Part shown: positions 3,790 through 21,810 of the stretch, piece by piece | How the letters are laid out: the number at the start of each line of letters is the position of its first letter | How positions within the stretch are numbered: the first letter of the stretch is position 1 | Origin: Dehalococcoidia bacterium | GTDB lineage: Bacteria > Chloroflexota > Dehalococcoidia > Plut-88900 | Assembly: GCA_965197645.1 (NCBI GenBank) | Contig: OZ240219.1 | Span: forward strand, 2,848,001-2,912,000 | Length of the DNA stretch: 64,000 nucleotides | Direction of reading: 5' to 3' | Made by a program: the position numbers and the translations under genes | The notes under the pieces: model-generated | What the model was told of the DNA's origin: nothing | What the model saw: only the letters and a program-made list of their open reading frames with translations | Database searches by the model: none

Positions 3790-3867
3790 GGAAACTGGCA
3801 ATGATGCACTTGACACACCCTGATAGCTGTGATACGATTTCCTTGTAGTCAAAACGAGGTATCACAG

Positions 3868-4866
3868 ATGCAATCAGAGAAGCTAACCTTTCAAGCGGTG
3901 TTGCGGTGGGATGAGGAACAGTGCAGGCATTTTCTAGCCTCAATGCGGTGGCCTCAAGGTATCCGTTGCCCCAAGTGCGGCGCTACAGACGAACCTTACA
4001 CCATCACCCGCAAAAAGCCAGGCAAAAACAAGGTAACATCCCTCTACAAGTGCCGGGCTTGTAAGCGCCAGTTCAGCGCCACCCTCGGAACCATCTTTGA
4101 AGACAGCCACATTCCCCTCAACAAGTGGCTGGCGGCCTTATTCCTGATGGTGTCCAGCAAGAAGGGCATCAGTGCCCACCAGCTTTACCGCCTTCTTGAT
4201 TTGGGTTCCTACCGTACCGGGTGGTTCATGGCCCATCGTATACGGGAAGCTATGCGGGAGAAGGGATTGCTTGAACCTCTGTCCGGCGATGTAGAGGCCG
4301 ACGAAACGTACTTGCACCCTCGCCGCCGGCGTGGAAGCCCTGGATACCATGAGCGTGTCCAGGATGAGATTGAGATGGGCATTCGCCCGAAGCCCAGGCG
4401 GAAAGGCCCCTACGAGGGCAAGGCGGTTGTGTTCGGCATGCAAGAGCGTGATGCGAATGTTAGGACGGTGCATGTGCCCGACGCAACTCGCCAGACACTG
4501 CACCCGATAATCCGGCGGTGGATCGACTCGTTAAACACACGGCTGATTACGGACCAGCACCCGGCCTATCGTTTAGCGAAACGGTTCGTGAAGCACGAAA
4601 CCATCAACCACGAAACCGAGTACGTCCGGGGCGATGTGCACACGCAGAATATCGACAACTACTGGTCGATCTTCAAGAGGGGCATCTACGGGGTGTTCCA
4701 CCACATTGGGGAGGACTACCTACCCAACTACCTCAGCGAGTTTGACTTTAGGCGGAACCGGCGGAAGATATCGGACGTGGAGCGGTTCGTTAGTCTGATG
4801 GGCCAGCTTCAGGGCCGTCTTCTGTGGTACTGCAAGACTCCCCAGCCGGCGAATCCTTACGCGTAG
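3868..4866 (+). CDS. IS1595-family transposase
   Basis: N-terminal zinc ribbon (RWPQGIRCPKC...YKCRAC), GTIFEDSHIPL, VEADETY, LITD, HTQNIDNYWS and YLSEFDFR motifs. ATG 3868 follows GAGGT; the track uses GTG 3829. Confidence 0.93.
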   Translation: MQSEKLTFQAVLRWDEEQCRHFLASMRWPQGIRCPKCGATDEPYTITRKKPGKNKVTSLYKCRACKRQFSATLGTIFEDSHIPLNKWLAALFLMVSSKKGISAHQLYRLLDLGSYRTGWFMAHRIREAMREKGLLEPLSGDVEADETYLHPRRRRGSPGYHERVQDEIEMGIRPKPRRKGPYEGKAVVFGMQERDANVRTVHVPDATRQTLHPIIRRWIDSLNTRLITDQHPAYRLAKRFVKHETINHETEYVRGDVHTQNIDNYWSIFKRGIYGVFHHIGEDYLPNYLSEFDFRRNRRKISDVERFVSLMGQLQGRLLWYCKTPQPANPYA

Positions 4867-5073: not shown

Positions 5074-5164
5074 GGAAGGAGACCTAAGCTGGTGCTTAAT
5101 GCGGGCTTAAAACCTGTAGGGGCCGTGCCCACAGCGCGGTCAGGTTCGATTCCCTCTCCTTCCG
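5074..5164 (+). tRNA. Non-canonical tRNA-Sec-like (9/3 allo-tRNA-type) gene, anticodon UAA, discriminator G, CCA not encoded
   Basis: Acceptor GGAAGGAGA/TCTCCTTCC (9 bp); D arm TAAGC-TGGT-GCTTA; anticodon arm TGCGGG-CTTAAAA-CCTGTA; variable arm GGCCGTGC-CCACA-GCGCGGTC; T arm AGG-TTCGATT-CCC. Confidence 0.85.
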
Positions 5165-6762: not shown

Positions 6763-8070
6763 ATGAAGCTGGAGATGGGCGTCTTCAACGTAACCCAGGC
6801 GGAGTTCTCCGATAGGACCGAGTTCCACGACGGAGTCCTTTCAATCAACAAGGCCGAGCTTCTCCAGCACCTCTCGAAGGACTCTCCGTTTCAGAGGGTC
6901 GAACTCGACCTCGTACGGCCCGGCGAAGATGCCCGCATCGTCCACGCCCTTGACATCGCCGAGCCCCGGGTCAAGGTCTCCGGCCCCGGTCAGGTCTTCG
7001 CTGGCATGCTGGGACCTCCCAGCCAGGCAGGCGAAGGTCGTACCCATCGGCTGGCCGGCTTCTCCGTTGTTGGCGCCGCCGAACCGTTTCCCGGAGAGGA
7101 CGTCTGGTACGCCCGGGAAGCGGTGATCGATATGTCCGGCCCGGGCGCCGACTACTCTCTCTTCTCGCAGACGATAAACCTGGTGCTCTCCTTTGTACCT
7201 CACGATGGACCGACTGCCAACGAGCTGGAGGAGAGGCTCAACTACGAGGTGGACTACAAGACGGGCCAGGCCCAGGAGTACACTCTCCAGTCCCGATTGC
7301 TGGGCCTCAAAGCCGCCGGCTACCTCGCTGAGGCCGTCCGCAATATCGAGCCACCCGATATCGATATCTATGAGCTTTCGCCCGTGGAAGACAACCTACC
7401 CGGAATAGTCTACCTGGTTCAAAACCTGGGCGGTGTGATCTACGGAGCAAACGGCGCTCGGAGCAACAATGCCGTTCTGCTCCACCCCAACGAGCTAATG
7501 GACGGCGCAGTAGTCAACGGCAAGTGGTGGAACCACGCCTGCATGAGAGAGGCTACCTACCTCTTCCAGAACGATGCCGTAGTCAGCACTTTGTACGGCG
7601 CCCACGGCAAGACGCTCAACTTCCTCGGCGTAATCTTCTTCGACGGGGGCCAGTACGAGCTGGGGGACAAGGACCGGGAGAGCAGCGAGGTAGTAAAGAT
7701 CTCACGCATGTTGGGCGCCGATGGGGCCATCATTTCCCCCCTCAGCGCAGGACACCAGGCCGTCGGCTACATGATGATTTGCCAAAAGTGTGAGAACGCG
7801 GGAATCAGCACCGTCCTGGGAATAGGCCAGATGACCAACAACAAAGGCGACCCCGGCTTCACAACCTGGGTCCCCGAGGCCGACGCCATCATCATTCCAG
7901 GAGACGACGAGGAGATCCTTTCCCTTCCTGCGGTGAAGAGGGTGATCGGCGGGACCACGATAATGAACTCGTCCCAGGACGCGTCGGGGCCGATTGAGAT
8001 ACAATTGCGATCGATATACGGCGCCACCGGACCGATAGCGCCGGGCAGGTTAAGCGGCCGGTTGTACTAG
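6763..8070 (+). CDS. Glycine/sarcosine/betaine reductase component B proprotein (GrdE-like)
   Basis: DIAEPRVKVSG, GEGRTHRLAG, IDMSGPGADYS and LHPNELMDGAVV motifs; Cys in HACMREATY at the approximate proprotein cleavage position; directly upstream of the grdB-like gene. Confidence 0.85.
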   Translation: MKLEMGVFNVTQAEFSDRTEFHDGVLSINKAELLQHLSKDSPFQRVELDLVRPGEDARIVHALDIAEPRVKVSGPGQVFAGMLGPPSQAGEGRTHRLAGFSVVGAAEPFPGEDVWYAREAVIDMSGPGADYSLFSQTINLVLSFVPHDGPTANELEERLNYEVDYKTGQAQEYTLQSRLLGLKAAGYLAEAVRNIEPPDIDIYELSPVEDNLPGIVYLVQNLGGVIYGANGARSNNAVLLHPNELMDGAVVNGKWWNHACMREATYLFQNDAVVSTLYGAHGKTLNFLGVIFFDGGQYELGDKDRESSEVVKISRMLGADGAIISPLSAGHQAVGYMMICQKCENAGISTVLGIGQMTNNKGDPGFTTWVPEADAIIIPGDDEEILSLPAVKRVIGGTTIMNSSQDASGPIEIQLRSIYGATGPIAPGRLSGRLY

Positions 8071-8086
8071 AGAGCGAGGCGATGTC

Positions 8087-9409
8087 ATGGCCAAGCTGCG
8101 CATAGTCCACTATCTCAACCAGTTCTTCGCCGGTGTTGGGGGCGAAGAGGAGGCGAACACGCCTCCAGGCGTCAAGGCCGGCCCCGTCGGCCCGGCACAG
8201 GCTCTCCACAACATTCTCTCCACCGACGGCGCCGGCGAGATTGTCGCCACCGTCTACTGCGGAGACAACTACATCACCGAGCACGGCGAAGAGGCGCTGG
8301 AACAGCTACTGGGCCTCATAAAGCCTCTCGCGGCCGACGTGGTCGTGGCCGGGCCCTCCTTCGGTTCCGGGCGATACGGCCTGGCCTGCGGTCAGGTCTG
8401 CGCCGCGGTCAACGAGCAGCTGGATATCCCGGTGGTGTCCGGAATGCACAAGGACAGTCCGGGCGCCCAGGAGTACCGCACCTCAGCCTACATCGCCTCC
8501 ACCACCGAGACCGCCATCGGCATGTCCGATGCCATCGCCACCATGGCGAGGCTGACAACCAAGCTGGGCCGCGGCCAGGAACTGGGCCCCGCCGACGAGG
8601 AGGGCTACGTTCCTACTGGACGGGTCAAGAACGAGTTCTCGGACCGCACCATCGCCACCCGGCTGGTGGACATGCTCTTGAAGAAGGTCAAAGGCGAACC
8701 CTTCGAGACCGAGTGGCCTCTCCCGGCCATGGAGAAGATTACCCCCTCCCCTGCCTTGGCCGACCTGTCCAACGCCAAGATCGCCCTCGTCACCGAAGGC
8801 GGCGTGGTGCCCAAGGGCAACCCGGACAAGATACCCGGTGGCTGGGCCGAGCACTGGGCCCGGTACAACATCAGCGAGACCGAGAGGCTAAACCCCGAGA
8901 ACTGGCAGTCGGTACACGGCGGTTTCGACACCACCGACGTCAACCGGGATCCGGACAGGGTCGTACCCCTGGATGCTCTTCGGGACCTGGAGAAGGAAAA
9001 GGCCGTCGGCAAGGTCCACGACTACGTGTATACCACCGTCGGGAACCTGGGCTACGTATCCAACATGCGGAAGTTCGGCAAGGAGATAGCCAAGGAGCTG
9101 TTGGATGCCAACGTGGATGGGGTTATTCTCACCGGCACCTGAGGCACCGGCACCCGCAGCGGAGCTGCGATGGCCAAGGAGCTGGAGAGAGCCGGCCTCC
9201 CCACGGCATTCATCACCTCGATGGTGCCTCTGGCCCAGGGAATGGGCGCCAATCGGATAGTTCAGGGCAAGGCCGTCACCCACACCACGGGCGATCCCTC
9301 CCTGGTTCCCGAAGGAGAAAAGGCCTTTCGCAAGGGTCTGGTGGAAAAGGCCCTCAAGGCGCTCCAGACCGAGACCAAGGAGCAGGAGGTGTTCTGGGCG
9401 GAGGGGTAG
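8087..9409 (+). CDS. grdB: Glycine/betaine/sarcosine reductase selenoprotein B-like (440 aa, Sec at TGA 9140-9142)
   Basis: HYLNQFFAGVGGEE N-terminus. Track ORFs 8087-9142 and 9170-9409 share a frame and read through as VILTGT-U-GTGTRSGAAMAKELERAG, matching GrdB TSTUGTCTRCGATM. Confidence 0.9.
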
Positions 9410-9474
9410 AGACTAGGGCGACGCCTAAAACGTCACCACCCGGCTGCTAGGGCCTGTTCACACTCTCGCTTCCA

Positions 9475-9673
9475 ATGTCATTCCGAAACGGAGGGCAGCG
9501 TAGTGAGGAATCTATGGCCCATGTTCCCAGACCATTTTGCGTATCGTGTGTAGGCGGAACCGTTGGACCAGATGCGTAATCCCGAGATTATTAGGGTCCG
9601 CCGACCCTCCGACGGAATCGGGCCGTGATTCCCGACAACCCTCCTGGATTCCTCACTGCGTTCGGAATGACAT
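9475..9673. repeat. REP/MITE-like palindromic element between convergent genes
   Basis: Perfect 13-bp inverted repeat ATGTCATTCCGAA (9475-9487) / TTCGGAATGACAT (9661-9673), plus inner arms CGTAGTGAGGAATC / GATTCCTCACTGCG. Confidence 0.7.
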
Positions 9674-9714
9674 CTAAGCTCCACAGATGACTCGGGCCTT
9701 AATGTGAAGGGGCC

Positions 9715-10800
9715 CTATTCGAACATGATGACGCTTCGGGCGACGTGGGCCTCCCTCATGTCTTCGAAGGCCCTGTTCACGTCCTCCAGCTTGATCTTCT
9801 TGGTCACCATCTCGTCCAGCCTCAGCCGGCCCTGGAGGTAGAGCTCTATGTACTGGGGCATATCCACCCGGAAGGAGTTGGAGCCCATGTTGCTACCCTG
9901 GACCACCTTTTGAGTCAGCAGCATGGGCCCATCTATCTGGATCTTGGTCCCTTCGGGGATCATCCCGATGATGGTGGCCACGCCGCCGGTGTCCAGCATG
10001 TCGTAGGCCTGCTCAGCGGTCTCCGCCAGCCCTATGGCCTCGAAGGAGTAGTCCACGCCGCGTCCGCCGGTGATGCTCTTGATCTTGTCGACTACGCCGC
10101 CCGTCGAAGCGTCTACGACGTCCGTCGCACCCAGCTCCCGGGCTAGGCCCAGCTTAGTCTCCACGCCATCGACGGCGATGATCTGCGCCGCACCGGCGAT
10201 TCTGGCCCCCTGGATGGCGCTCATTCCCACGCCTCCACACCCGATCACCGCCACCGAGCTTCCCGGCTTCACCCGAGCGGTGCGCATTGCAGCCCCGACT
10301 CCGGTGGTCACGCCGCATCCGATGAGAGCCAGCACCTCCATGGGCACGTCGTCCCGCACCTTGACGGCGGCGTTTTCGTGCACCAGCATCTTCTCGGCGA
10401 AGGAGGAGAGATGCAGGAACTGATGGACCTTCTCGCCGCCCTTGCTGATGCGAGGGGTCTCGTTTCGCTTTCTGGTGAGGTCCTCCTGGCGGCAGTTGAA
10501 CGGTTGCCCGGCGAGGCACTTATCGCAGGCGCCACAGAAGACCGAGAGGCAGGTGATGGCCCTGTCTCCCGGCTGGAAGTAGGTCACCAGGTCTCCGACC
10601 GCCTCGATGGTGCCGGCTGCCTCGTGCCCCAGAATAGTGGGCATGGGATACCTGTATTTCCCTTCGACGAAGTGAAGATCGCTGTGTCAGACGCCGCTGG
10701 CGCCGGTGCGGATCACCACCTCCCGAGGTCCGGGCTTGTCTATCTCCACGTCCTCTATGGTCAAGGGAGCGTTGACCTCCCTCAAGACTGCTGCTTTCAT
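9715..10800 (-). CDS. Zn-dependent alcohol dehydrogenase (MDR), predicted selenoprotein, 361 aa, TGA at codon 38
   Basis: From ATG 10800 (GGAG RBS): MKAAVLREVNAPLTIEDVEIDKPGPREVVIRTGASGV-U-HSDLHFVEGKYRYPMPTILGHE, continuous with track ORF 9715-10644; TGA at 10689-10687. Confidence 0.88.
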
Positions 10801-10809
10801 CGCCTGCTC

Positions 10810-11895
10810 CTAGTCAAATACTATGATGCTTCGAGCCAGGTGCCCGTCCCGAAGGTCGTCCATCCCTTCGTTGATTTGGTCCAGCTTGATCCGCTTGGAG
10901 ATGATCTCGTCCAGCTTCAAGCGGCCCTGCCGGTAAAGCTCCATGTACCGGGGCATGTCCACCCGGAACCGGTTGGAGCCCATGTTGCTTCCCTGGATGC
11001 GCCGTCCATCGAGGAACGATGGTCCGTCCAGCTCCACCTTGGTACCCTCGGGGATCATGCCGATGACCGTGGCCGTCCCGCCCCTGTCCAGCATATCGAA
11101 GGCCTGCTGGGCCGTCTCAGCCTTGCCGATGGCCTCGAAGGAGTAGTCGACGCCGCGACCTCCCGTCAGGCTCTTCACCCTCTCCACCACATCGCCTCCC
11201 GATGCGTCTATAACGTCGGTGGCGCCCACCCTCTGGGCGTAGGCCAGCTTGTCCTCAATGGCGTCGATGGCGATGACACGCGCCGCGCCGCCGATGATCG
11301 CTCCGTTGACCGCGCTGAGGCCCACGCCTCCGCAGCCGATGACCGCCACGGTGCTTCCGGGCTCCACCCGGGCCGTGTTCAGGGCCGCTCCGGTGCCGGT
11401 TGTGGTGCCGCAACCGATCAGCGCCTGCACCTCTATGGGCACGTCCTCGTCCACCTTCACACCGGCGTTCTCATGGACCAGCATGTACTCGGCAAAGGAG
11501 GAAAGGCTCATCGCCTGGTGGACCTTCTCGCCACCCTTGTGCAGCCGGGGTTGTTCGCCCGGCCCTCGGTCAAGCCCCACCTGGCGGCAGTTCACCATCT
11601 CCCCTTGCAGGCACTTGTCGCAGGTGCCGCAGAACACCGAGAGGCAGGTAATCACCCGGTCTCCCGGCTGGAAGTAGGTCACCTGCTCACCCACCGCTTC
11701 GATGGTTCCCGCCGATTCGTGGCCCAGAATCGTAGGTGTGTCGTGTGTGTACAGACCGTCGACGTAGTGGAGGTCGCTGTGGCATACCCCTGTTGCGCCG
11801 GTCTTGATCAGGACCTCCCTTGGCCCGGGGTCGCTGACGTCAACGTCTTCAATCTCCAGCAACTCGAAGGGTTTATACATTACTGCGGCTTTCAT
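10810..11895 (-). CDS. Zn-dependent alcohol dehydrogenase (MDR), Cys form, 361 aa
   Basis: GVCHSDLH, GHE, CGTCDKC...C, IGCG and GCGGVG motifs. Confidence 0.95.
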   Translation of the reverse strand: MKAAVMYKPFELLEIEDVDVSDPGPREVLIKTGATGVCHSDLHYVDGLYTHDTPTILGHESAGTIEAVGEQVTYFQPGDRVITCLSVFCGTCDKCLQGEMVNCRQVGLDRGPGEQPRLHKGGEKVHQAMSLSSFAEYMLVHENAGVKVDEDVPIEVQALIGCGTTTGTGAALNTARVEPGSTVAVIGCGGVGLSAVNGAIIGGAARVIAIDAIEDKLAYAQRVGATDVIDASGGDVVERVKSLTGGRGVDYSFEAIGKAETAQQAFDMLDRGGTATVIGMIPEGTKVELDGPSFLDGRRIQGSNMGSNRFRVDMPRYMELYRQGRLKLDEIISKRIKLDQINEGMDDLRDGHLARSIIVFD

Positions 11896-11932
11896 ATCGA
11901 TCCTTTCCGGTAAGACCCTAGATGTTCATCCT

Positions 11933-13018
11933 TTAATCGAACACTATGACGCTTCGGGCTACGTGCCCCTCCTTCATGTCCTCAAAGGCCTGGTTCACGT
12001 CCTCCAGCTTGATCGTTTTAGTCACCAGCTCGTTCAGCTTCAGCCGGCCCTGAAGATACAGCTCAACGTACTGGGGCATGTGAACGCGGAACCGGTTGGA
12101 GCCCATGTTGCTACCCTGTATCTTCTTCTCGCTCAACAGAGAGGGCCCGTCGATATGGATGTCGGTGCCCTCGGGAATCATGCCGATGACCGTGGCTACG
12201 CCACCGTTGTCCAGCATGTTGTAGCACTGCTCCGCCGTCTCTTTGAGTCCGATAGCCTCGAAGGAGTAATCGACGCCGCGTCCACCTGTTATCTGCTTGA
12301 CCTTCTCCACTACTCCGCCGCCGGATGCGTCGATGACGTCGGTCGCCCCGAGCTGTTGGGCCAGTGCCAGTTTCGTCTCCACCGGATCGATTGCGATGAT
12401 CTGGGCCGCTCCGGCGATGGCGGCGCCCTGCAACGCGCTGAGCCCCACGCCACCCAGCCCCACCACTGCCACGGTGCTCCCGGGGCTTACCTTGGCGGTG
12501 TTCAACGCCGCCCCGACTCCCGTCGTCACCCCACAGCCGATAAGCGCGATCTCCTCTATGGGCACGTCGTCCCGGATTTTCACCGTCGCGTTTTCATGCA
12601 CCAGCATGTACTCGGCGAAGGTGGAAAGGCTGGAAAAGTGGAACACGGGAGTACCGCGAAGGCTGAGCCTGGGCGGTTCGTCGGGGCCCCGTTCCAGCCC
12701 TTCCCGCCGGCACAGGGCCGGATTGCCGCTGAGGCACTTATCACAGGCGCCGCAGAACACCGAGAGACAGGAGATTACGCGGTCGCCGGGCTTCACGTAG
12801 GTGACCAGATCCCCTACCGCTTCAACCGTTCCCGCCGCTTCGTCACCCAGGACCGTTGGAGTGGGACACTTGTACAATCCTTCCAGGAAGTGAAGATTGC
12901 TGTGTCAGACGCCGCTGGCCCCAGTCCGAATCAGCACCTCTCTGGGCCCCGGGTTATCGAAGTCGACATCCTCTATCGAAAGGGGGGTGTGCGCCTCGTG
13001 CATTACGGCAGCCTTCAT
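11933..13018 (-). CDS. Zn-dependent alcohol dehydrogenase (MDR), predicted selenoprotein with altered metal ligands, 361 aa, TGA at codon 38
   Basis: From ATG 13018 (AGGAG RBS): MKAAVMHEAHTPLSIEDVDFDNPGPREVLIRTGASGV-U-HSNLHFLEGLYKCPTPTVLGDE, continuous with track ORF 11933-12877; TGA at 12907-12905. Confidence 0.86.
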
Positions 13019-13239
13019 GAGTCATCTCCTCCTGAAACTCTGAGATAGCCAAACGAGACCTTCGGCAAAGACCGAGGGTACTGGCGAGAGTGTATTACCA
13101 TTCTCAAGGCCAGTCAACAAGCACGCACACGAGCGGATGGCGGGTGACGTGCGGCTTGATCCGCATCCCATAAAGCTCGCCCCACCCTCCCCGGCGTTGG
13201 TTTTCCCAACCACCCACCCTAGGAAGGTTATGATTGGTT

Positions 13240-13326
13240 GGGGGAACATCCCCTAGGCCCTCTACCAGAGTCAGGGCGAGGCCCTGCACCCATAACATGA
13301 GAGAAGAGAGGGCAACGTCCCGCACC
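13240..13326 (+). repeat. Dispersed intergenic repeat, copy 1
   Basis: GGGGGAACATCCCCTAGGCCCTCTACCAGAGTCAGGGCGAGGCCCTGCACCCATAACATGAG... aligns closely with the reverse complement of 19116-19202. Confidence 0.75.
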
Positions 13327-13555
13327 TATGGCAGGTAGAAGATAGTGCTGGCCTATGCCAAAGAGGAAAGGGGTTCGGGGTAGAGTCTTAGCAGGCCGAT
13401 GAAACACGTGGTGTGCAGAGGGGCGACGCCCCTTGTTCTTCCCCTTCCTGATCAGAAAAGGGGCAAAGGATATGGTCGCGAAAGCCGTGATGAGGGGACA
13501 GTGCCGCCGAGAGGCAAGTTGAGGGTAACCAGGGCATCCGCCCCGGTCCAAGACC

Positions 13556-14008
13556 CTACTCGGTGGTAACCGAGTCCTGGGACTGGTCCAGGGCAGCCTT
13601 GAGGGTATGCCAGGCCAGGCTGGCGCATTTCACCCGGGCGGGAAACTCCCGCACGCCGCTCAGTATCGCCAGCTTCCCCAGCTCGTCCATCGATTCCATG
13701 GGGTCGGTTTCTCCGGTGACGGTCTTGTGAAAGACGTCGAACAGCCGGGCCACCTCCTCCTCGTCGGTCCCCTTCACCGCGTCGGTCATCATCGAGGCGC
13801 AGGCCTTGGAAATAGCGCACCCGCCGCCTTCGAACCCGATGTCCTCGATGGTGCCGTCCTTCACCTTTATGTCAATGAATATCTCGTCTCCGCACAGGGG
13901 ATTGTAGCCCTCGGCGTGCCTGTTGGCGTCATCGAGACGCCGGAAGTTCCTCGGGCGCCGATTGTGGTCCAGCACCGTTTGCTGGTAAAGCTCTCCCAGG
14001 TCCGACAT
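13556..14008 (-). CDS. sufU: SUF system Fe-S assembly protein SufU
   Basis: LYQQTVLDH, GYNPLCGD, GCAISKA and RVKCASLAW motifs. Confidence 0.95.
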   Translation of the reverse strand: MSDLGELYQQTVLDHNRRPRNFRRLDDANRHAEGYNPLCGDEIFIDIKVKDGTIEDIGFEGGGCAISKACASMMTDAVKGTDEEEVARLFDVFHKTVTGETDPMESMDELGKLAILSGVREFPARVKCASLAWHTLKAALDQSQDSVTTE

Positions 14009-15279
14009 TAGCCAAACACCTCATTCACCTTGTCCAGCCCCTTCACCAGCGCGTCCACGTCCTCCTTGGTATTGTAGAAGGCGAAGGACGCTCTGACCGT
14101 CGCGGGGACCCCGAAGTGGGCCATTACCGGTTGCGCGCAGTGGTGGCCGGTGCGTATGGCAATCCCCTCGTAGTCCAGGATGCTCCCCACATCGTGGGCG
14201 TGTACGTCTCCGCATAAGAATGATACGACACTGGCCTTCTGCGACGCCGTGCCCACTACCCGCAGCCCGTCCATCGTAGAAAGCGACTCGGTGGCGTAGG
14301 ACAGCAGCTCCTGCTCGTAGCCCGCTATCTCCTGCCTACCGATATGCTCCACGTACTCCAGGGCCGCTCCCAGGCCTATCGCCCCTGCTACGTTGGGCGT
14401 GCCCGCCTCGAACCTGTGAGGTAAATCGTTGTAGGTGGTCTTCTCGAAGGTGACGGAGCGGATCATATCTCCGCCGGCCTGATAGGGGGCCATAGATCCC
14501 AGCAACTCTTCCTTGCCGTAGAGTATCCCCATACCCATCGGCCCGAAGACCTTGTGGCTGGAGAAGACGTAGAAGTCGCAGTCCAACTCCCGAACGTCCA
14601 CCGGGCCGTGGGGCACGGCCTGGGCCCCGTCTATCAGCACCGGCGCCCCGATGCTGTGGGCCATCTCGATAATGGATCTAACCGGGTTGACCGTCCCCAG
14701 TGCGTTGGAGACGTGGGCCATAGAGACCAGCTTTGTCCGCGGCCCGAGGAGCCGTTCGTACTCCTCCAGAACCAGTTCGCCGTCGTCATTGATGGGGACC
14801 ACTCTCAGAACGGCCCCCTTTTCCTCGCACAGCAGCTGCCAGGGCACGATATTGGAGTGGTGCTCCATCTCCGAGATGATCACCTCGTCTCCTGCGCTCA
14901 GGATATTCCTTCCCAGGCTGCTGGCCACCAGGTTGATCCCTTCCGTGGTGCCCTTGGTGAATACTATCTCCCTGACGCTTGCCGCGTTTACAAACCCCCG
15001 GACGATCTCCCGCGACCCTTCGAAGGCTGCCGTGGCCCGTTCGCTCAGCTGGTGCAACCCCCGGTGGACGTTGGAGTTGTAGCAGCCGTAGTAGTCCGTG
15101 ACGGCATCGATGACCCGCTGGGGTTTCTGGCTGGTGGCGGCGTTGTCCAGGTAGACCAGCGGTTTCCCATGCACCTTCTGGTGCAACGCAGGAAACTCCG
15201 CTCGAAGCCTCTTTACTTCCGCCTCGGTCAGAGAGGCGACGGCGGTCCGCGGAGCACCCGCCCCGTCGGGGCTACCCAT
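14008..15279 (-). CDS. sufS: Cysteine desulfurase SufS
   Basis: YLDNAATSQKP, SSHKVFGP, FEAGTP and RTGHHCAQP motifs; start is either ATG 15279 or GTG 15288. Confidence 0.95.
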   Translation of the reverse strand: MGSPDGAGAPRTAVASLTEAEVKRLRAEFPALHQKVHGKPLVYLDNAATSQKPQRVIDAVTDYYGCYNSNVHRGLHQLSERATAAFEGSREIVRGFVNAASVREIVFTKGTTEGINLVASSLGRNILSAGDEVIISEMEHHSNIVPWQLLCEEKGAVLRVVPINDDGELVLEEYERLLGPRTKLVSMAHVSNALGTVNPVRSIIEMAHSIGAPVLIDGAQAVPHGPVDVRELDCDFYVFSSHKVFGPMGMGILYGKEELLGSMAPYQAGGDMIRSVTFEKTTYNDLPHRFEAGTPNVAGAIGLGAALEYVEHIGRQEIAGYEQELLSYATESLSTMDGLRVVGTASQKASVVSFLCGDVHAHDVGSILDYEGIAIRTGHHCAQPVMAHFGVPATVRASFAFYNTKEDVDALVKGLDKVNEVFG

Positions 15280-16591
15280 TCGCCCCACCCTGTTTCTCGG
15301 CCACTACGTCCTCTATCAGCCCCCTGAGCTCTTGCATCTCTATTGTATCGACTACCTCTTGAGCGAACCCTCGGACCAGGAACCGTCGAGCATCTTCGGC
15401 GCTTACCCCCCGGCTGTTCAGGTAGAATACTGCCTCGTCGTCGAGCTGCCCCACTGTCGCTCCGTGAGAGCACTTGAGGTCGTCGGCGAATATCTCCAGC
15501 TGGGGCTTGGTGTTCACCTCTGCCCGCTCTGCCAACAGCAGGTTGCGATTGGTCTGGTTGGAGTCAATCTGGCGGGTGCCCTGCCGGGCCACGACCTTGC
15601 CATTGAACACCGCCTTGGACCGTCCGTCCAGTATCCCTTTGTACAGCTGCCGGCTGCGGGTGAAAGAAGCGGCGTGGTCGACGCTGGTGTGGTTATCGAT
15701 GTGCTGCCCATCGCTGGTGATGAACAGACCGTTGAGTGCGCACTCGCTCCCTTCGCCTTCCATGTCTACGTTGAGATCGTTCCGGCCCAACTTGGCGCCC
15801 ACGTCCAGCGAGAAGACGGAGGCCTGGCTGTCACGGGCCTGGTGTATCTGGATTGTGCCGATGTGGAAGGCTTCGACTCCCTCGCGCTGTAGTTTGAAGT
15901 GCTCCAGCCGGGCGTTCTCGCCGACAACCGCTTCGGTCACCGCGTTAGTGAACGAAGGCCCATCCCCGATGTAGCTTTCGATAATGGTGGCCTTGCTGCC
16001 CCTCTCCAGAACGATCAGGTTCCGTGGATAGGCGACCACCGCCCCCTCGGCGGAGGTGACAAAAATCAGGTGAACGGGGTTGTACAGCTCTACTCCGGCC
16101 GGAACGTGAACGTAGCCGCCGTCCTCCATGAATGCGGAGTTGAGCCCAATGAACCCGTTGCTCTCCAGGTCTGCGTAGCGGCCAAGATGCTTTTCAACTG
16201 TCTCGGAATCGACGGCCTCCGCGAGGCTGCCCACCGAGTCGTGAGCGATGGAAGAGAGCTCCTCATTGAAGACGCCGTTCAGGAAGACGAGGCTGCTCCA
16301 ACCGGGTTTGTCAACGGTCAACCCGTCGATTTCGGCTTCCGACAGGGCAACGCCGGTGCAATCCCGGGCATGGGCATACCGGGTTCGGCCTATCGGCGCT
16401 ACGTTGGTGTACTTCCAGTCTTCGTGCCGAGTCGTGGGAAATCCGTGGGCCTCGAATCGGGCGAATCCCTTGGCCCGAAACCGGCTGAGCCACTCCGGGT
16501 CTGCTGTATCGGAGCTGCTGCGGAATGACTCGAACTGGGACGTATAGGCCTCGTGTGCCCGTTGAACCTGTACCGTATCGCTTCCTGCCAT
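15272..16591 (-). CDS. sufD: Fe-S assembly protein SufD
   Basis: EDWKYT, KPQLEIFADDLKCSHGATVG and FYLNSRG motifs. Confidence 0.95.
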   Translation of the reverse strand: MAGSDTVQVQRAHEAYTSQFESFRSSSDTADPEWLSRFRAKGFARFEAHGFPTTRHEDWKYTNVAPIGRTRYAHARDCTGVALSEAEIDGLTVDKPGWSSLVFLNGVFNEELSSIAHDSVGSLAEAVDSETVEKHLGRYADLESNGFIGLNSAFMEDGGYVHVPAGVELYNPVHLIFVTSAEGAVVAYPRNLIVLERGSKATIIESYIGDGPSFTNAVTEAVVGENARLEHFKLQREGVEAFHIGTIQIHQARDSQASVFSLDVGAKLGRNDLNVDMEGEGSECALNGLFITSDGQHIDNHTSVDHAASFTRSRQLYKGILDGRSKAVFNGKVVARQGTRQIDSNQTNRNLLLAERAEVNTKPQLEIFADDLKCSHGATVGQLDDEAVFYLNSRGVSAEDARRFLVRGFAQEVVDTIEMQELRGLIEDVVAEKQGGANG

Positions 16592-16607
16592 CTCCAGTCG
16601 CCGGTCG

Positions 16608-17372
16608 TTACCCCGCCTTGACCTGCTCCCTGACCCAATCGTAGCCGTGCTCCTCCAGGTGCAGGGCGAGGTCCCTGCCGCCGGACTCCACTATCCGGCC
16701 TTCCAGCAGAACGTGGACGAAGTCCGGGGTGATGTAGTTGAGAATACGCTGATAGTGGGTGATCAGCAGGATGGCGTTGGACGGGGTGCGAAGCATGTTC
16801 ACACCGTTGGCCACGGTCTTCAGCGCATCGATATCCAGCCCCGAGTCCGTCTCGTCGAGGACCGCCAGGGTTGGTTCCAACACCGCCATCTGCAGTATCT
16901 CGTTGCGCTTTTTTTCGCCTCCGGAGAAGCCGTCGTTCACCGCCCGGTTGACGTAGCTGGAGTCCATGTCCACCACTTTCAGCTTCTCCTTGAGGACCCT
17001 GTAGAACTCCACCGCGTCCAGCTCCTCCAGCCCCTGGGCCTGCCGCAGGGAGTTGTACGCCGTCTTCATGAACTCGTTGTTGGTCACGCCAGGGATCTCA
17101 AGGGGGTACTGGAAGGCCATGAAGAGCCCTTCCCGGGCCCTCTCCTCAGGCAGCATCTCCAGCAGGTCCCTGCCCTTGTAGGCCACCTCGCCTTCCGTAA
17201 CGTGATAGGCGAAGTGTCCCGCCAGCACCCGGGCCAGCGTGCTCTTGCCCGAGCCGTTGGGTCCCATGACCGCGTGCGCTTCGCCCTCGTTGATCTGAAG
17301 GTCTATGCCCTTGAGTATCTCTACGTCTTCGACGCCTGCGTGCAGATTTCTGATATCCAGGATGGTCGACAT
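16608..17372 (-). CDS. sufC: Fe-S assembly ATPase SufC
   Basis: GPNGSGKST, GFSGGEKKRNEILQ and LDETDSGLDIDAL motifs. Confidence 0.96.
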   Translation of the reverse strand: MSTILDIRNLHAGVEDVEILKGIDLQINEGEAHAVMGPNGSGKSTLARVLAGHFAYHVTEGEVAYKGRDLLEMLPEERAREGLFMAFQYPLEIPGVTNNEFMKTAYNSLRQAQGLEELDAVEFYRVLKEKLKVVDMDSSYVNRAVNDGFSGGEKKRNEILQMAVLEPTLAVLDETDSGLDIDALKTVANGVNMLRTPSNAILLITHYQRILNYITPDFVHVLLEGRIVESGGRDLALHLEEHGYDWVREQVKAG

Positions 17373-17378
17373 GGCTAT

Positions 17379-18824
<1,446 letters not shown>

Positions 18825-20721: not shown

Positions 20722-21810
20722 TTACACCTTGATAACGGACCTTAGCGTCTCTCCTCGCTCCATGGCCTCGAACGCCTCCCGGGTCTCCTCCAGCTTGATC
20801 ACCCGGGTCACTACCCGGTCCAGGTCCAGCTTGCCCTGCAGGTACCACTCGGCCAGCATGGGGAAGTCCCGAGACGGCAGATTGTCGCCGTACCAGCTCA
20901 CCCTGAGCGAGCCACCCAGCCCGAAGAACTGGAGCATCGGCAGCTCCATCACCATCGTCGGATCGGGCACTCCTATGAGGGTGCAGACCCCCGCCAGGTC
21001 CCGGGACCACAGGGCCTGCAACAGTGTTCCCGGCTGGCCCACCGCTTCAAAGGAATAGTCGACCCCGTTGCCACCCGTCAGCTCCTTTATCGCCTCCACC
21101 GGGTCCGACTTCGATGCGTCCACTACATCGGTCGCCCCGAACTCGACCGCCCAGTCCAGCTTGTTCTGGGCAATGTCTACCCCGATGATCTTGTTGGCGT
21201 TGGCCAGCTTCGCCCCCATGATCACGCTGCATCCGATGCCTCCACACCCGTACACGGCGACGCTGCTGCCGCGACGTACCCCAGCCGTGTACAACGCCGC
21301 ACCGATACCCGTGGTCACTCCGCACCCGAGCAGCGAGGCCTGCTCCGGCGGGCATTCCCGTGGGACGGGCACCGCCTGCTTGGCCGACACTACGGTATGA
21401 GTGCAGAAGGTCCCTATTCCCAAGGCCGGGTTCAGCTGCGCCCCATCCTTCTTGGCGAACATCCTGGGCTCGGCATTCAGGCTGGCAGAACACAGATGCG
21501 GCTGGCCTATGGAACAGAACCGGCACTTCTCGCACGGCGCCCTCCACGCAAGCACCACGTAGTCTCCCACCTGGGGCGAGTCTACACCCTCGCCCACCGC
21601 CTCCACTATTCCCGCGCCCTCGTGGCCCAGAAGAAAGGGGAAATCGTTGGTGATCTTGCCCTGCTGGTAGTGCAGGTCCGTGTGGCACACGCCGCTGGCC
21701 TGGATACGCACCAGCACCTCCCCCGGTCCAGGATCATCTATCCTTATCTCCTCCACCTGCTCCGGCTCTCCCGCCTTCCGAGAAATCACTCCCAGTCCGT
21801 CTATGGACAT
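20722..21810 (-). CDS. Zn-dependent dehydrogenase, S-(hydroxymethyl)mycothiol dehydrogenase (MscR)-like
   Basis: GVCHTDLHY, PFLLGHE and SWYGDNLPSRDFP motifs resemble actinobacterial MscR/AdhE2. Confidence 0.8.
   Translation of the reverse strand: MSIDGLGVISRKAGEPEQVEEIRIDDPGPGEVLVRIQASGVCHTDLHYQQGKITNDFPFLLGHEGAGIVEAVGEGVDSPQVGDYVVLAWRAPCEKCRFCSIGQPHLCSASLNAEPRMFAKKDGAQLNPALGIGTFCTHTVVSAKQAVPVPRECPPEQASLLGCGVTTGIGAALYTAGVRRGSSVAVYGCGGIGCSVIMGAKLANANKIIGVDIAQNKLDWAVEFGATDVVDASKSDPVEAIKELTGGNGVDYSFEAVGQPGTLLQALWSRDLAGVCTLIGVPDPTMVMELPMLQFFGLGGSLRVSWYGDNLPSRDFPMLAEWYLQGKLDLDRVVTRVIKLEETREAFEAMERGETLRSVIKV

Follow-up and report, generated by a model that had tools for sequence, protein, structure and literature searches.

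Proposed selenocysteine at a catalytic zinc ligand in tandem alcohol dehydrogenase genes of a Dehalococcoidia bacterium

Nearly all catalogued selenoproteins use selenocysteine (Sec) as a redox nucleophile, and the few cases in which Sec is a metal ligand involve redox-active molybdenum, tungsten or nickel. Two of the closest described systems are of the latter kind. In both FdhA (Mo/W) and [NiFeSe] hydrogenase (Ni), a Cys that coordinates the catalytic metal is replaced by Sec, and Cys homologues coexist with the Sec forms (PMC13188914). The subject of this work is a set of three tandem alcohol dehydrogenase (ADH) genes of medium-chain dehydrogenase/reductase (MDR) type from a Dehalococcoidia bacterium. 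They lie in a 64,000-nucleotide stretch of contig OZ240219.1 (positions 2,848,001 to 2,912,000 of the forward strand), which we call the window and number from its first letter. Two of the genes, ADH-A and ADH-C, have an in-frame TGA at the codon for a ligand of the catalytic zinc, and we think it likely that they encode Sec-containing zinc ADHs in which a selenolate would be a zinc ligand. Such enzymes would differ from FdhA and [NiFeSe] hydrogenase in using zinc, a redox-inert Lewis acid, in depending on NAD and in having an unrelated fold.

The window ADHs resemble the 119 predicted prokaryotic selenoprotein families listed in Table 1 of PMC13188914 (May 2026) in showing a Sec/Cys pair, a TGA homologue in another Sec user and conservation of both flanks. 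They differ in that a canonical bacterial Sec insertion sequence (bSECIS) was present in just one of the four TGA-containing ADH genes described below. There is also no MDR or ADH family in that inventory, and the words "alcohol dehydrogenase" do not occur in the text of the paper as available to us; an earlier reading of this DNA, made without database searches (the sequence-only reading), had already placed MDR-ADH outside the classical bacterial selenoprotein families. The same words are absent from the main texts of the deep-Sep (PMC12013277) and BSepDB (PMC13326102) papers, as far as these were available, although their supplements might list such a family. A full-text literature search for Sec linked to MDR or zinc alcohol dehydrogenase returned no paper.

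The three genes are arranged head to tail on the minus strand, and each is 1086 bp long (361 codons plus a stop codon). The genes and the codons of interest are the following:

11933 to 13018, minus strand: ADH-A, MDR zinc ADH with TGA as codon 38 and an N/D-type site (HSNLH, GDE)
10810 to 11895, minus strand: ADH-B, Cys form with TGC as codon 38 (GVCHSDLH) and a D/H-type site (HSDLH, GHE)
9715 to 10800, minus strand: ADH-C, with TGA as codon 38 and a D/H-type site that is canonical except for the TGA
12905 to 12907, minus strand: proposed Sec codon of ADH-A, TGA codon 38 (GV*HSNLH), aligned to liver ADH Cys46
10687 to 10689, minus strand: proposed Sec codon of ADH-C, TGA codon 38 (GV*HSDLH)

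The spacers within the array are 37 nt and then 9 nt. Each gene starts with ATG, preceded by a purine-rich Shine-Dalgarno-like stretch, and the final stops of ADH-A, ADH-B and ADH-C are TAA, TAG and TAG. There was no second internal in-frame stop anywhere in the 361-codon frames of ADH-A and ADH-C. The sequence-only reading had described three tandem 1086-bp paralogues with TGA, TGC and TGA at codon 38, and our coordinates and sequences agree with it in every detail. It had also described, for both TGA genes, a ribosome binding site, an ATG, an intact N-terminus and an open frame after the TGA, and we found the same. The visible divergence that it reported between the TGA copies corresponds to 74% protein identity between ADH-A and ADH-C; ADH-A and ADH-B are 68% identical. 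Its expectation that standard pipelines would truncate these genes proved correct. With standard stops, the callable open reading frames (ORFs) shorten to 314 aa (ADH-A) and 309 aa (ADH-C), and a public protein collection holds ADH-A as a 314-aa record (P0001) for which PF08240 (ADH_N) and PF00107 (ADH_zinc_N) are recorded.

We compared the products with solved ADH structures. Chains of liver and class III ADH (PDB 1hdy, 1deh, 7aas and 1adb among them) matched residues 2-360 with E values from 1e-64 to 3e-75, and for the four named chains these were 1e-69 to 3e-75. The alignment to human ADH is ungapped over residues 2-105 with an offset of 8, so residue 38 corresponds to Cys46, a ligand of the catalytic zinc; the assignment made earlier without searches is thus borne out by ungapped alignment to the human and horse enzymes (E 3e-75). 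Further equivalences are residue 59 to His67, residue 60 to Glu68, residues 40 and 43 to relay positions 48 and 51, and C162 to Cys174. ADH-A, ADH-B and ADH-C all have the structural-zinc motif CxxCxxCx7C at residues 89-103 (C89/C92/C95/C103; Cys 97, 100, 103 and 111 of liver ADH). There is a GxGxxG NAD motif at residue 187 (GLGGVG or GCGGVG), with an acidic residue after the second strand. At the three catalytic ligand positions, 46 is TGA in ADH-A and ADH-C, 67 is His in ADH-B and ADH-C and Asp in ADH-A, and 174 (C162) is Cys in all three genes. ADH-B and ADH-C are canonical at every site residue checked, apart from the TGA of ADH-C. The window genes therefore share with class I/III zinc ADHs (liver ADH; S-(hydroxymethyl)glutathione dehydrogenase) the full-length two-domain MDR fold of a GroES-like catalytic domain and a Rossmann NAD domain, the structural-zinc motif, the relay and the equivalents of Cys174 and Glu68. 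They differ from them at the Cys46 position, which is TGA in ADH-A and ADH-C.

Matches to curated families were full-length and remote. NCBIfam MDR families matched all three ADHs over their full length (E 1e-84 to 1e-95, 283-321 bits), with TIGR03989, TIGR02818 and TIGR03451 as the top curated families. All of these matches were below the curated cut-offs; for ADH-A the scores and cut-offs were 321 and 440 (TIGR03989), 318.2 and 543.95 (TIGR02818), and 284 and 512.9 (TIGR03451), and those for ADH-B and ADH-C were similar. Because the scores are under every NCBIfam equivalog cut-off, the substrate cannot be assigned by family, and we saw no substrate clue among the genes neighbouring the array. 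TIGR03989 (NDMA-dependent ADH, Rxyl_3153 subfamily; 303-321 bits full-length) and TIGR03451 (mycothiol-dependent formaldehyde dehydrogenase; 284-308 bits full-length) are among the best-scoring families, and neither is known to have been described with Sec, unlike what is proposed for the window genes. In NCBIfam release 20, no selenoprotein-type model matched these ADHs, save for a marginal match of their NAD domain (E 9e-4).

There were 13 MDR homologues in the source genome (G000) at E below 1e-20. One of these, ADH-D (G000:C1:399678-400760), is a fourth close paralogue, a Cys form that is 72% identical and lies 2.4 Mb away. Another MDR-ADH paralogue is located within the window itself (20722-21810, minus strand; G000:C1:2868731-2869786) and is 43% identical to ADH-A.

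The TGA at codon 38 recurs outside this genome. Another genus of the same family (G002; record OZ240221.1) has two homologues with a single TGA at the equivalent codon (GV*HSNLHF) and frames that are otherwise open over 360 codons, and these are 65-68% identical to ADH-A. The four TGA genes, from two genera, are full-length and mutually 63-75% identical. Among 59 extracted homologues, column 38 is Cys in 55 and TGA in four, so that TGA recurs opposite Cys, as the sequence-only reading would predict. TGA at this codon is one base away from TGC or TGT.

We aligned Logan contigs of sequencing runs from other studies to the region. Two of these had 0 differences from the window and span a TGA: a 142-nt contig (X6 record 24, 12899-13040) spans the TGA of ADH-A, and a 309-nt contig (X7 record 27, 10486-10794) spans that of ADH-C. 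Runs X6 and X7 are recorded as libraries of the metatranscriptome type, with the label 'sponge metagenome'. Two DNA runs, X3 and X5, also from other studies, cover both TGA genes at 95-98% identity, with strain-level differences. None of the 40 differences listed for X3 and X5 falls at a TGA, with 145 more unlisted, so 12905-12907 is not settled by these two runs. The argument from independent samples is carried by the exactly matching contigs from X6 and X7. We conclude that the TGA in ADH-A and ADH-C is real and conserved, and is neither an artefact nor a decaying lesion.

Selection was estimated from Nei-Gojobori counts made separately on codons 2-37 and 39-361. In five TGA-TGA pairs, the ratio of nonsynonymous to synonymous differences per site (pN/pS) was 0.21-0.38 upstream of the TGA and 0.20-0.33 downstream. 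In Cys-Cys pairs, it was 0.26-0.38 upstream of codon 38 and 0.21-0.22 downstream. Synonymous sites were at or near saturation (pS 0.56-0.83), and codons 2-37 were conserved as protein (58-75% identity). The similar values on both sides indicate that translation and constraint extend over the 37 codons ahead of the TGA just as over the remainder, and that selection on the TGA genes is purifying on either side, as it is in the Cys paralogues; the sequence-only reading had pointed to this comparison as a check.

The genome encodes the machinery for Sec decoding on which that reading also depended, with selA, selB, selC and selD all present above curated or gathering cut-offs. Profile matches were 547.7 bits for selA (cut-off 268), 346.8 for selB (cut-off 242) and 379.7 for selD (cut-off 125), and the selD gene itself contains one TGA. 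The gene for the tRNA is in the window:

5074 to 5163, plus strand: tRNA-Sec (selC), Rfam RF01852, 50.8 bits (gathering score 47)

ARAGORN reported no tRNA in the window, a result that we set aside since Rfam detects tRNA-Sec. The tRNA-Sec gene adjoins an IS1595-family transposase gene at 3829-4866. TGA terminates 746 of the 2252 ORFs of at least 300 codons in the genome, so there is no genome-wide reassignment of this codon.

Other genes of the genome also have a TGA where a Cys is expected. A rough genome-wide codon-usage scan for read-through ORFs gave 8153 candidates and was used solely to choose control genes; ADH-C ranked 70th and ADH-A 376th, so the scan does not single out the ADHs. 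NCBIfam matches to ten picks from the scan were to the UGSC family (three copies) and to AhpD-, ArsC/Spx- and OsmC-related, peroxiredoxin-like and thioredoxin/NHL-like proteins, with TGA at the expected Cys motif and with several of the matches below family cut-offs. Examples of such genes are:

G000 C1:2775480, 811919, 2252957, 2211941, 742321, 283154, 806528, 805071, 2802759 and 423117: candidates for read-through whose TGA occupies a Cys-motif position

The genome appears to be rich in selenoprotein genes. Of the ten bacteria with the most selenoprotein genes according to the available part of the BSepDB paper (PMC13326102), two are Dehalococcoidia.

We propose that the UGA at codon 38 would be recoded by SelB and Sec-tRNA(Sec), helped by an RNA stem-loop beginning no more than ~10-25 nt further on. 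The catalytic zinc would then have a selenolate in place of the thiolate among its three protein ligands, along with Cys162 and either His59 (ADH-C) or Asp59 (ADH-A). The products would be functional NAD-dependent zinc-type medium-chain alcohol dehydrogenases. Since the structural zinc site, the NAD fold, the Ser40/His43 relay and Glu60 are intact, the chemistry is probably ordinary hydride transfer between alcohol or aldehyde and NAD(H). As a speculation, the softer and more readily re-reduced selenium ligand may tune the reactivity of the zinc or guard against irreversible oxidation. By the features used in silico to recognize selenoprotein families (a catalytic residue with a Sec/Cys pair, homologues that have TGA in a different Sec user, conserved flanks and the decoding machinery), ADH-A and ADH-C would qualify, a convincing SECIS excepted. 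We hold the Sec reading with good confidence for ADH-A. For ADH-C it is somewhat favoured, the lower rating being due to the near lack of a hairpin in that gene.

Several results weigh against the Sec reading, and the SECIS is its weakest link. We scanned for hairpins with our own implementation of the bSECIS constraints from the legend to Fig. 2 of PMC13188914. These ask for a loop of 3-9 nt whose first or second nucleotide is G, an upper stem of 4 bp or more, a spacing of 16-37 nt and an energy no higher than -7.5 kcal/mol. The scan was passed by one of the four TGA-ADH genes, 10 of the 13 control selenoprotein genes of the genome and one of 14 Cys-ADH genes. The controls mostly have an upper stem of 5-8 bp (6-8 bp for the most part), a loop of 3-5 nt and 17-31 nt from the UGA to the apical loop. 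The sole TGA-ADH gene that passed is one of the two from G002 (G002a), with a 7-bp stem, a GGUA loop, a spacing of 20 and an energy of -7.8 kcal/mol. The second gene of that genome (G002b) has the same 7-bp GGUA hairpin at -4.9 kcal/mol, with one stem difference that keeps the pairing (C-G to U-G). The candidate structure in ADH-A is the following:

12865 to 12906, minus strand: candidate stem-loop of ADH-A, 42 nt, two-tier, with its start inside the UGA, an 8-bp inner stem and an energy of -12.8 kcal/mol

Its loop is 11 nt, or 5 nt without a G, and so fails the published bSECIS loop rule. Up to 40 nt from the UGA, ADH-C had no hairpin more stable than -3.7 kcal/mol. RNAalifold on the four TGA genes gave a different and weak structure (-4.2 kcal/mol), the folding energy of the 63 nt after the UGA was no better than that of shuffles (z -0.84 and +0.95), and Rfam had no match on 9400-13600 at E up to 5. 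A SECIS of the published kind, which the sequence-only reading had assumed, was thus found in G002a, whereas ADH-A, ADH-C and G002b failed the scan. PMC13188914 itself notes that some bacterial selenoprotein genes do not conform to the bSECIS model. Because such genes are acknowledged there and three of our 13 controls fail as well, we take the SECIS result to be neutral on Sec decoding.

The remaining points against the Sec reading concern expression and distribution. The contigs from the RNA libraries X6 and X7 are compatible with transcription of the ADH genes, but they are no proof of transcription or of read-through. Both selA and selB were above cut-off in all 12 genomes of the order, including those of G002 and of a sister genus, g4, whose ADH-A orthologues have Cys. 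A missing Sec system is therefore ruled out as the explanation for these Cys forms, and Sec is dispensable at codon 38. The TGA forms are also rare. They were found in at least two genomes of a class sample of 401, at least 126 of which have a close homologue (150 matches listed, 53 further).

Searches of other scope gave a similar distribution. A search with the read-through protein gave TGA forms in two of 41 genomes of relatives, G000 included, and in two of the 12 genomes of the order. A wider codon-level pattern occurred in one of the 401 genomes of a phylum sample (G000), where G002 is not among the rows. The pattern GTNTGACAYAGYRAYCTNCAYTT, which is narrow in that it allows Ser only as AGY, matched six stretches in genome contigs, only two of them in ADH genes and both in the G002 record. 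In metagenome contigs the same pattern matched seven stretches, none of them an ADH; with a pattern this narrow, absence is not shown. There is a probable third case, putatively a TGA gene, among the best 120 of 7081 matches in a collection of 5.8 billion proteins. This protein, P0115 (308 aa, GDE present), is 79% identical to ADH-A, the highest identity among the matches listed except for the window's own product. Its gene call begins at the equivalent of residue 54, and its contig (31,082 bp) also encodes a full-length Cys form (P0016).

The sequence around the TGA is unusually similar between the two window genes:

12887 to 12919 (ADH-A) and 10669 to 10701 (ADH-C), minus strand: 33-nt tract around the TGA, with a 1-nt difference

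This tract is the most similar 12-codon segment of the two genes (0.94 identity, compared to a mean of 0.73), in contrast to the near-saturated synonymous sites elsewhere. Among codons for identical residues, 11 are the same and two differ between ADH-A and ADH-C at codons 33-50, compared to 132 and 114 elsewhere (p=0.025). Synonymous identity at codons 33-50 was raised in all six Sec-Sec pairs (p 0.025-0.17), which are not independent of one another, and none of the eight pairs including a Cys form had a significant excess (p 0.15-0.91). The tract could be due either to a short gene conversion that moved the TGA between ADH-A and ADH-C, or to a constraint on the RNA at the nucleotide level.

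We built trees of the 59 homologues with FastTree and of 21 of them with IQ-TREE, the latter set leaving out 38 sequences that were near-duplicates among the g4 orthologues, distant paralogues or additional outgroups. In both trees the four TGA genes occupy three places inside one family-specific clade. The two G002 genes group together (support 100), ADH-A is beside nine Cys orthologues from g4 (74-75% identity), and ADH-C is sister (support 65) to a clade of ADH-B, ADH-D and g4 Cys genes (support 100). The approximately unbiased (AU) test rejected monophyly, and with it a single origin, for the four TGA genes (p=0.036), so at least two switches between Sec and Cys are needed. One of these may correspond to a short gene-conversion tract between ADH-A and ADH-C.

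The position of ADH-B does not fit the suggestion, made in the sequence-only reading, that the middle Cys copy is a backup for selenium limitation. ADH-B is only 68% identical to ADH-A and belongs to a separate, well-supported clade, and g4 keeps orthologues of ADH-A and ADH-B as a pair in which both are Cys forms, the ADH-B orthologue being the second gene. ADH-A and ADH-B are therefore old, distinct paralogues and not Sec/Cys twins.

The ADH-A type has a further peculiarity: in ADH-A the His67 position is occupied by Asp, which the earlier reading missed, and the Asp49 position by Asn. Both changes, which distinguish these genes from class I/III ADHs, are also present in the two G002 TGA genes and in the g4 Cys orthologues. 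In liver and yeast ADH, Asp49 hydrogen-bonds the zinc ligand His67; a joint replacement of Asp49 by Asn and of His67 by Asp would therefore resemble a coherent remodelling of the site and not decay. The combination of Asn49 and Asp67 is an unusual variant of the MDR-ADH catalytic site in its own right. Monophyly of the Asn/Asp-type genes was not rejected by the AU test (p=0.44). This sub-lineage (L014-L022 and L037-L042 of genus g4; ADH-A; L081 and L083 of G002) spans both Cys and TGA forms at position 46.

Other explanations for the TGA have to be considered alongside Sec. It seems unlikely that the UGA is passed without Sec, by near-cognate read-through (with Trp, Cys, Gly or Arg) or as a leaky stop, to yield a low-abundance ordinary or crippled ADH. 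The SECIS is weak in three of the four genes and almost absent in ADH-C, and the lack of an Rfam SECIS-type match points the same way, yet three of the 13 control selenoprotein genes fail the scan too. The TGA is placed exactly at the catalytic Cys, one base from TGC or TGT, in a genome with a full Sec system and many selenoprotein genes. With Trp, Gly or Arg in place of a zinc ligand the site would be lost, yet purifying selection acts on the whole active site. A codon reassigned throughout the genome, or an error of sequencing or assembly, has next to no probability. We found no point in its support, and it conflicts with the exact contigs from independent studies over both TGAs, with the equivalent codon in a second genome and with the 746 of 2252 long ORFs that end in TGA.

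The constraint on the codons before the TGA bears on the two explanations in which this segment would not contribute to a protein: it makes recent pseudogenes very unlikely and rules out a downstream start. ADH-A and ADH-C could be taken for pseudogenes created by a recent nonsense mutation because gene callers truncate them, as in the 314-aa P0001, and because Cys paralogues could compensate for their loss. We give this little credence. Four genes in two genera have a stop at one shared codon only. They are 63-75% identical, their synonymous sites are saturated, and pN/pS is 0.2-0.4 on either side of the stop. With their monophyly rejected (AU p=0.036), one inherited lesion cannot explain them, and strain variants in other samples retain both ADH-A and ADH-C. 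It is less credible again that the true proteins of 309-314 aa begin after the TGA and that the first 37 codons are an untranslated leader. There are in-frame candidates for such a start (ATG at 10644, TTG at 12877), but codons 2-37 are conserved at 58-75% identity with pN/pS of 0.21-0.38 and are preceded by their own ATG and Shine-Dalgarno-like stretch, and the shorter product would lose one zinc ligand as well as the catalytic domain's first strands.

Taken against these alternatives, the Sec/zinc interpretation of the sequence-only reading has gained from the machinery, the recurrence of the TGA, the selection and the independent samples, and has lost from a SECIS that is weak and partly non-canonical. 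A broader proposal seems reasonably likely to us: that this is the first natural catalytic centre combining Sec and zinc, that the Sec state was gained or lost at least two times within one Dehalococcoidia family, that one sub-lineage combines it with the changes of His67 to Asp and Asp49 to Asn, and that at least two of the four genes are decoded through stem-loops outside the current bSECIS model.

If the Sec reading is true, Sec on a redox-inert Lewis-acid zinc would raise the question of what selenium buys where there is no redox step at the residue. This could be tested directly, because there are natural Sec and Cys orthologues at 75% identity (ADH-A and its g4 counterparts) and because one operon holds paralogues of both kinds. 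It would also add a selenoprotein family beyond the reach of homology pipelines that are built on known families (e.g. BSepDB). ADH-A and ADH-C draw attention to genes that annotation pipelines truncate, and, should their weak or atypical hairpins prove functional, the bacterial SECIS model would be widened.

The array is flanked by a complete suf operon (13556-18824, minus strand) and by a convergent pair of GrdG-like and GrdB-like genes (6763-9409, plus strand). A promoter-like site lies between the suf operon and ADH-A:

13089 to 13117, minus strand: promoter-like site TTGACT-17-TACACT, ~70 nt upstream of the ADH-A start, of a kind whose frequency in the region is not above chance

The suf operon, for Fe-S assembly, is directly upstream of the array on the same strand and encodes SufU, SufS, SufD and SufC along with a 481-codon ORF (17379-18824). 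On the other side, 300 nt from the array, is a gene of the GrdB selenoprotein family (8087-9409, plus strand; TIGR01918, 510 bits) with its TGA at 9143-9145, preceded by the GrdG-like gene (6763-8070). The motif after Sec in the GrdB-like gene is U-G-T-G-T-R-S, and a second copy near G000:C1:257586 has the identical motif. GrdB as described in the available part of PMC13188914 has UxxCxxC, whereas the gene in the window is without those two cysteines.

The intergenic region between the GrdB-like gene and ADH-C (9410-9714) contains two inverted repeat copies of ~25-30 nt that flank ~150 nt. The 16-mers of this repeat have 7-9 occurrences in the genome, and the summed depth of the DNA runs X3 and X5 in the bin 9600-9720 was ~240, compared to ~4-350 elsewhere. 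It looks like a small dispersed repeat.

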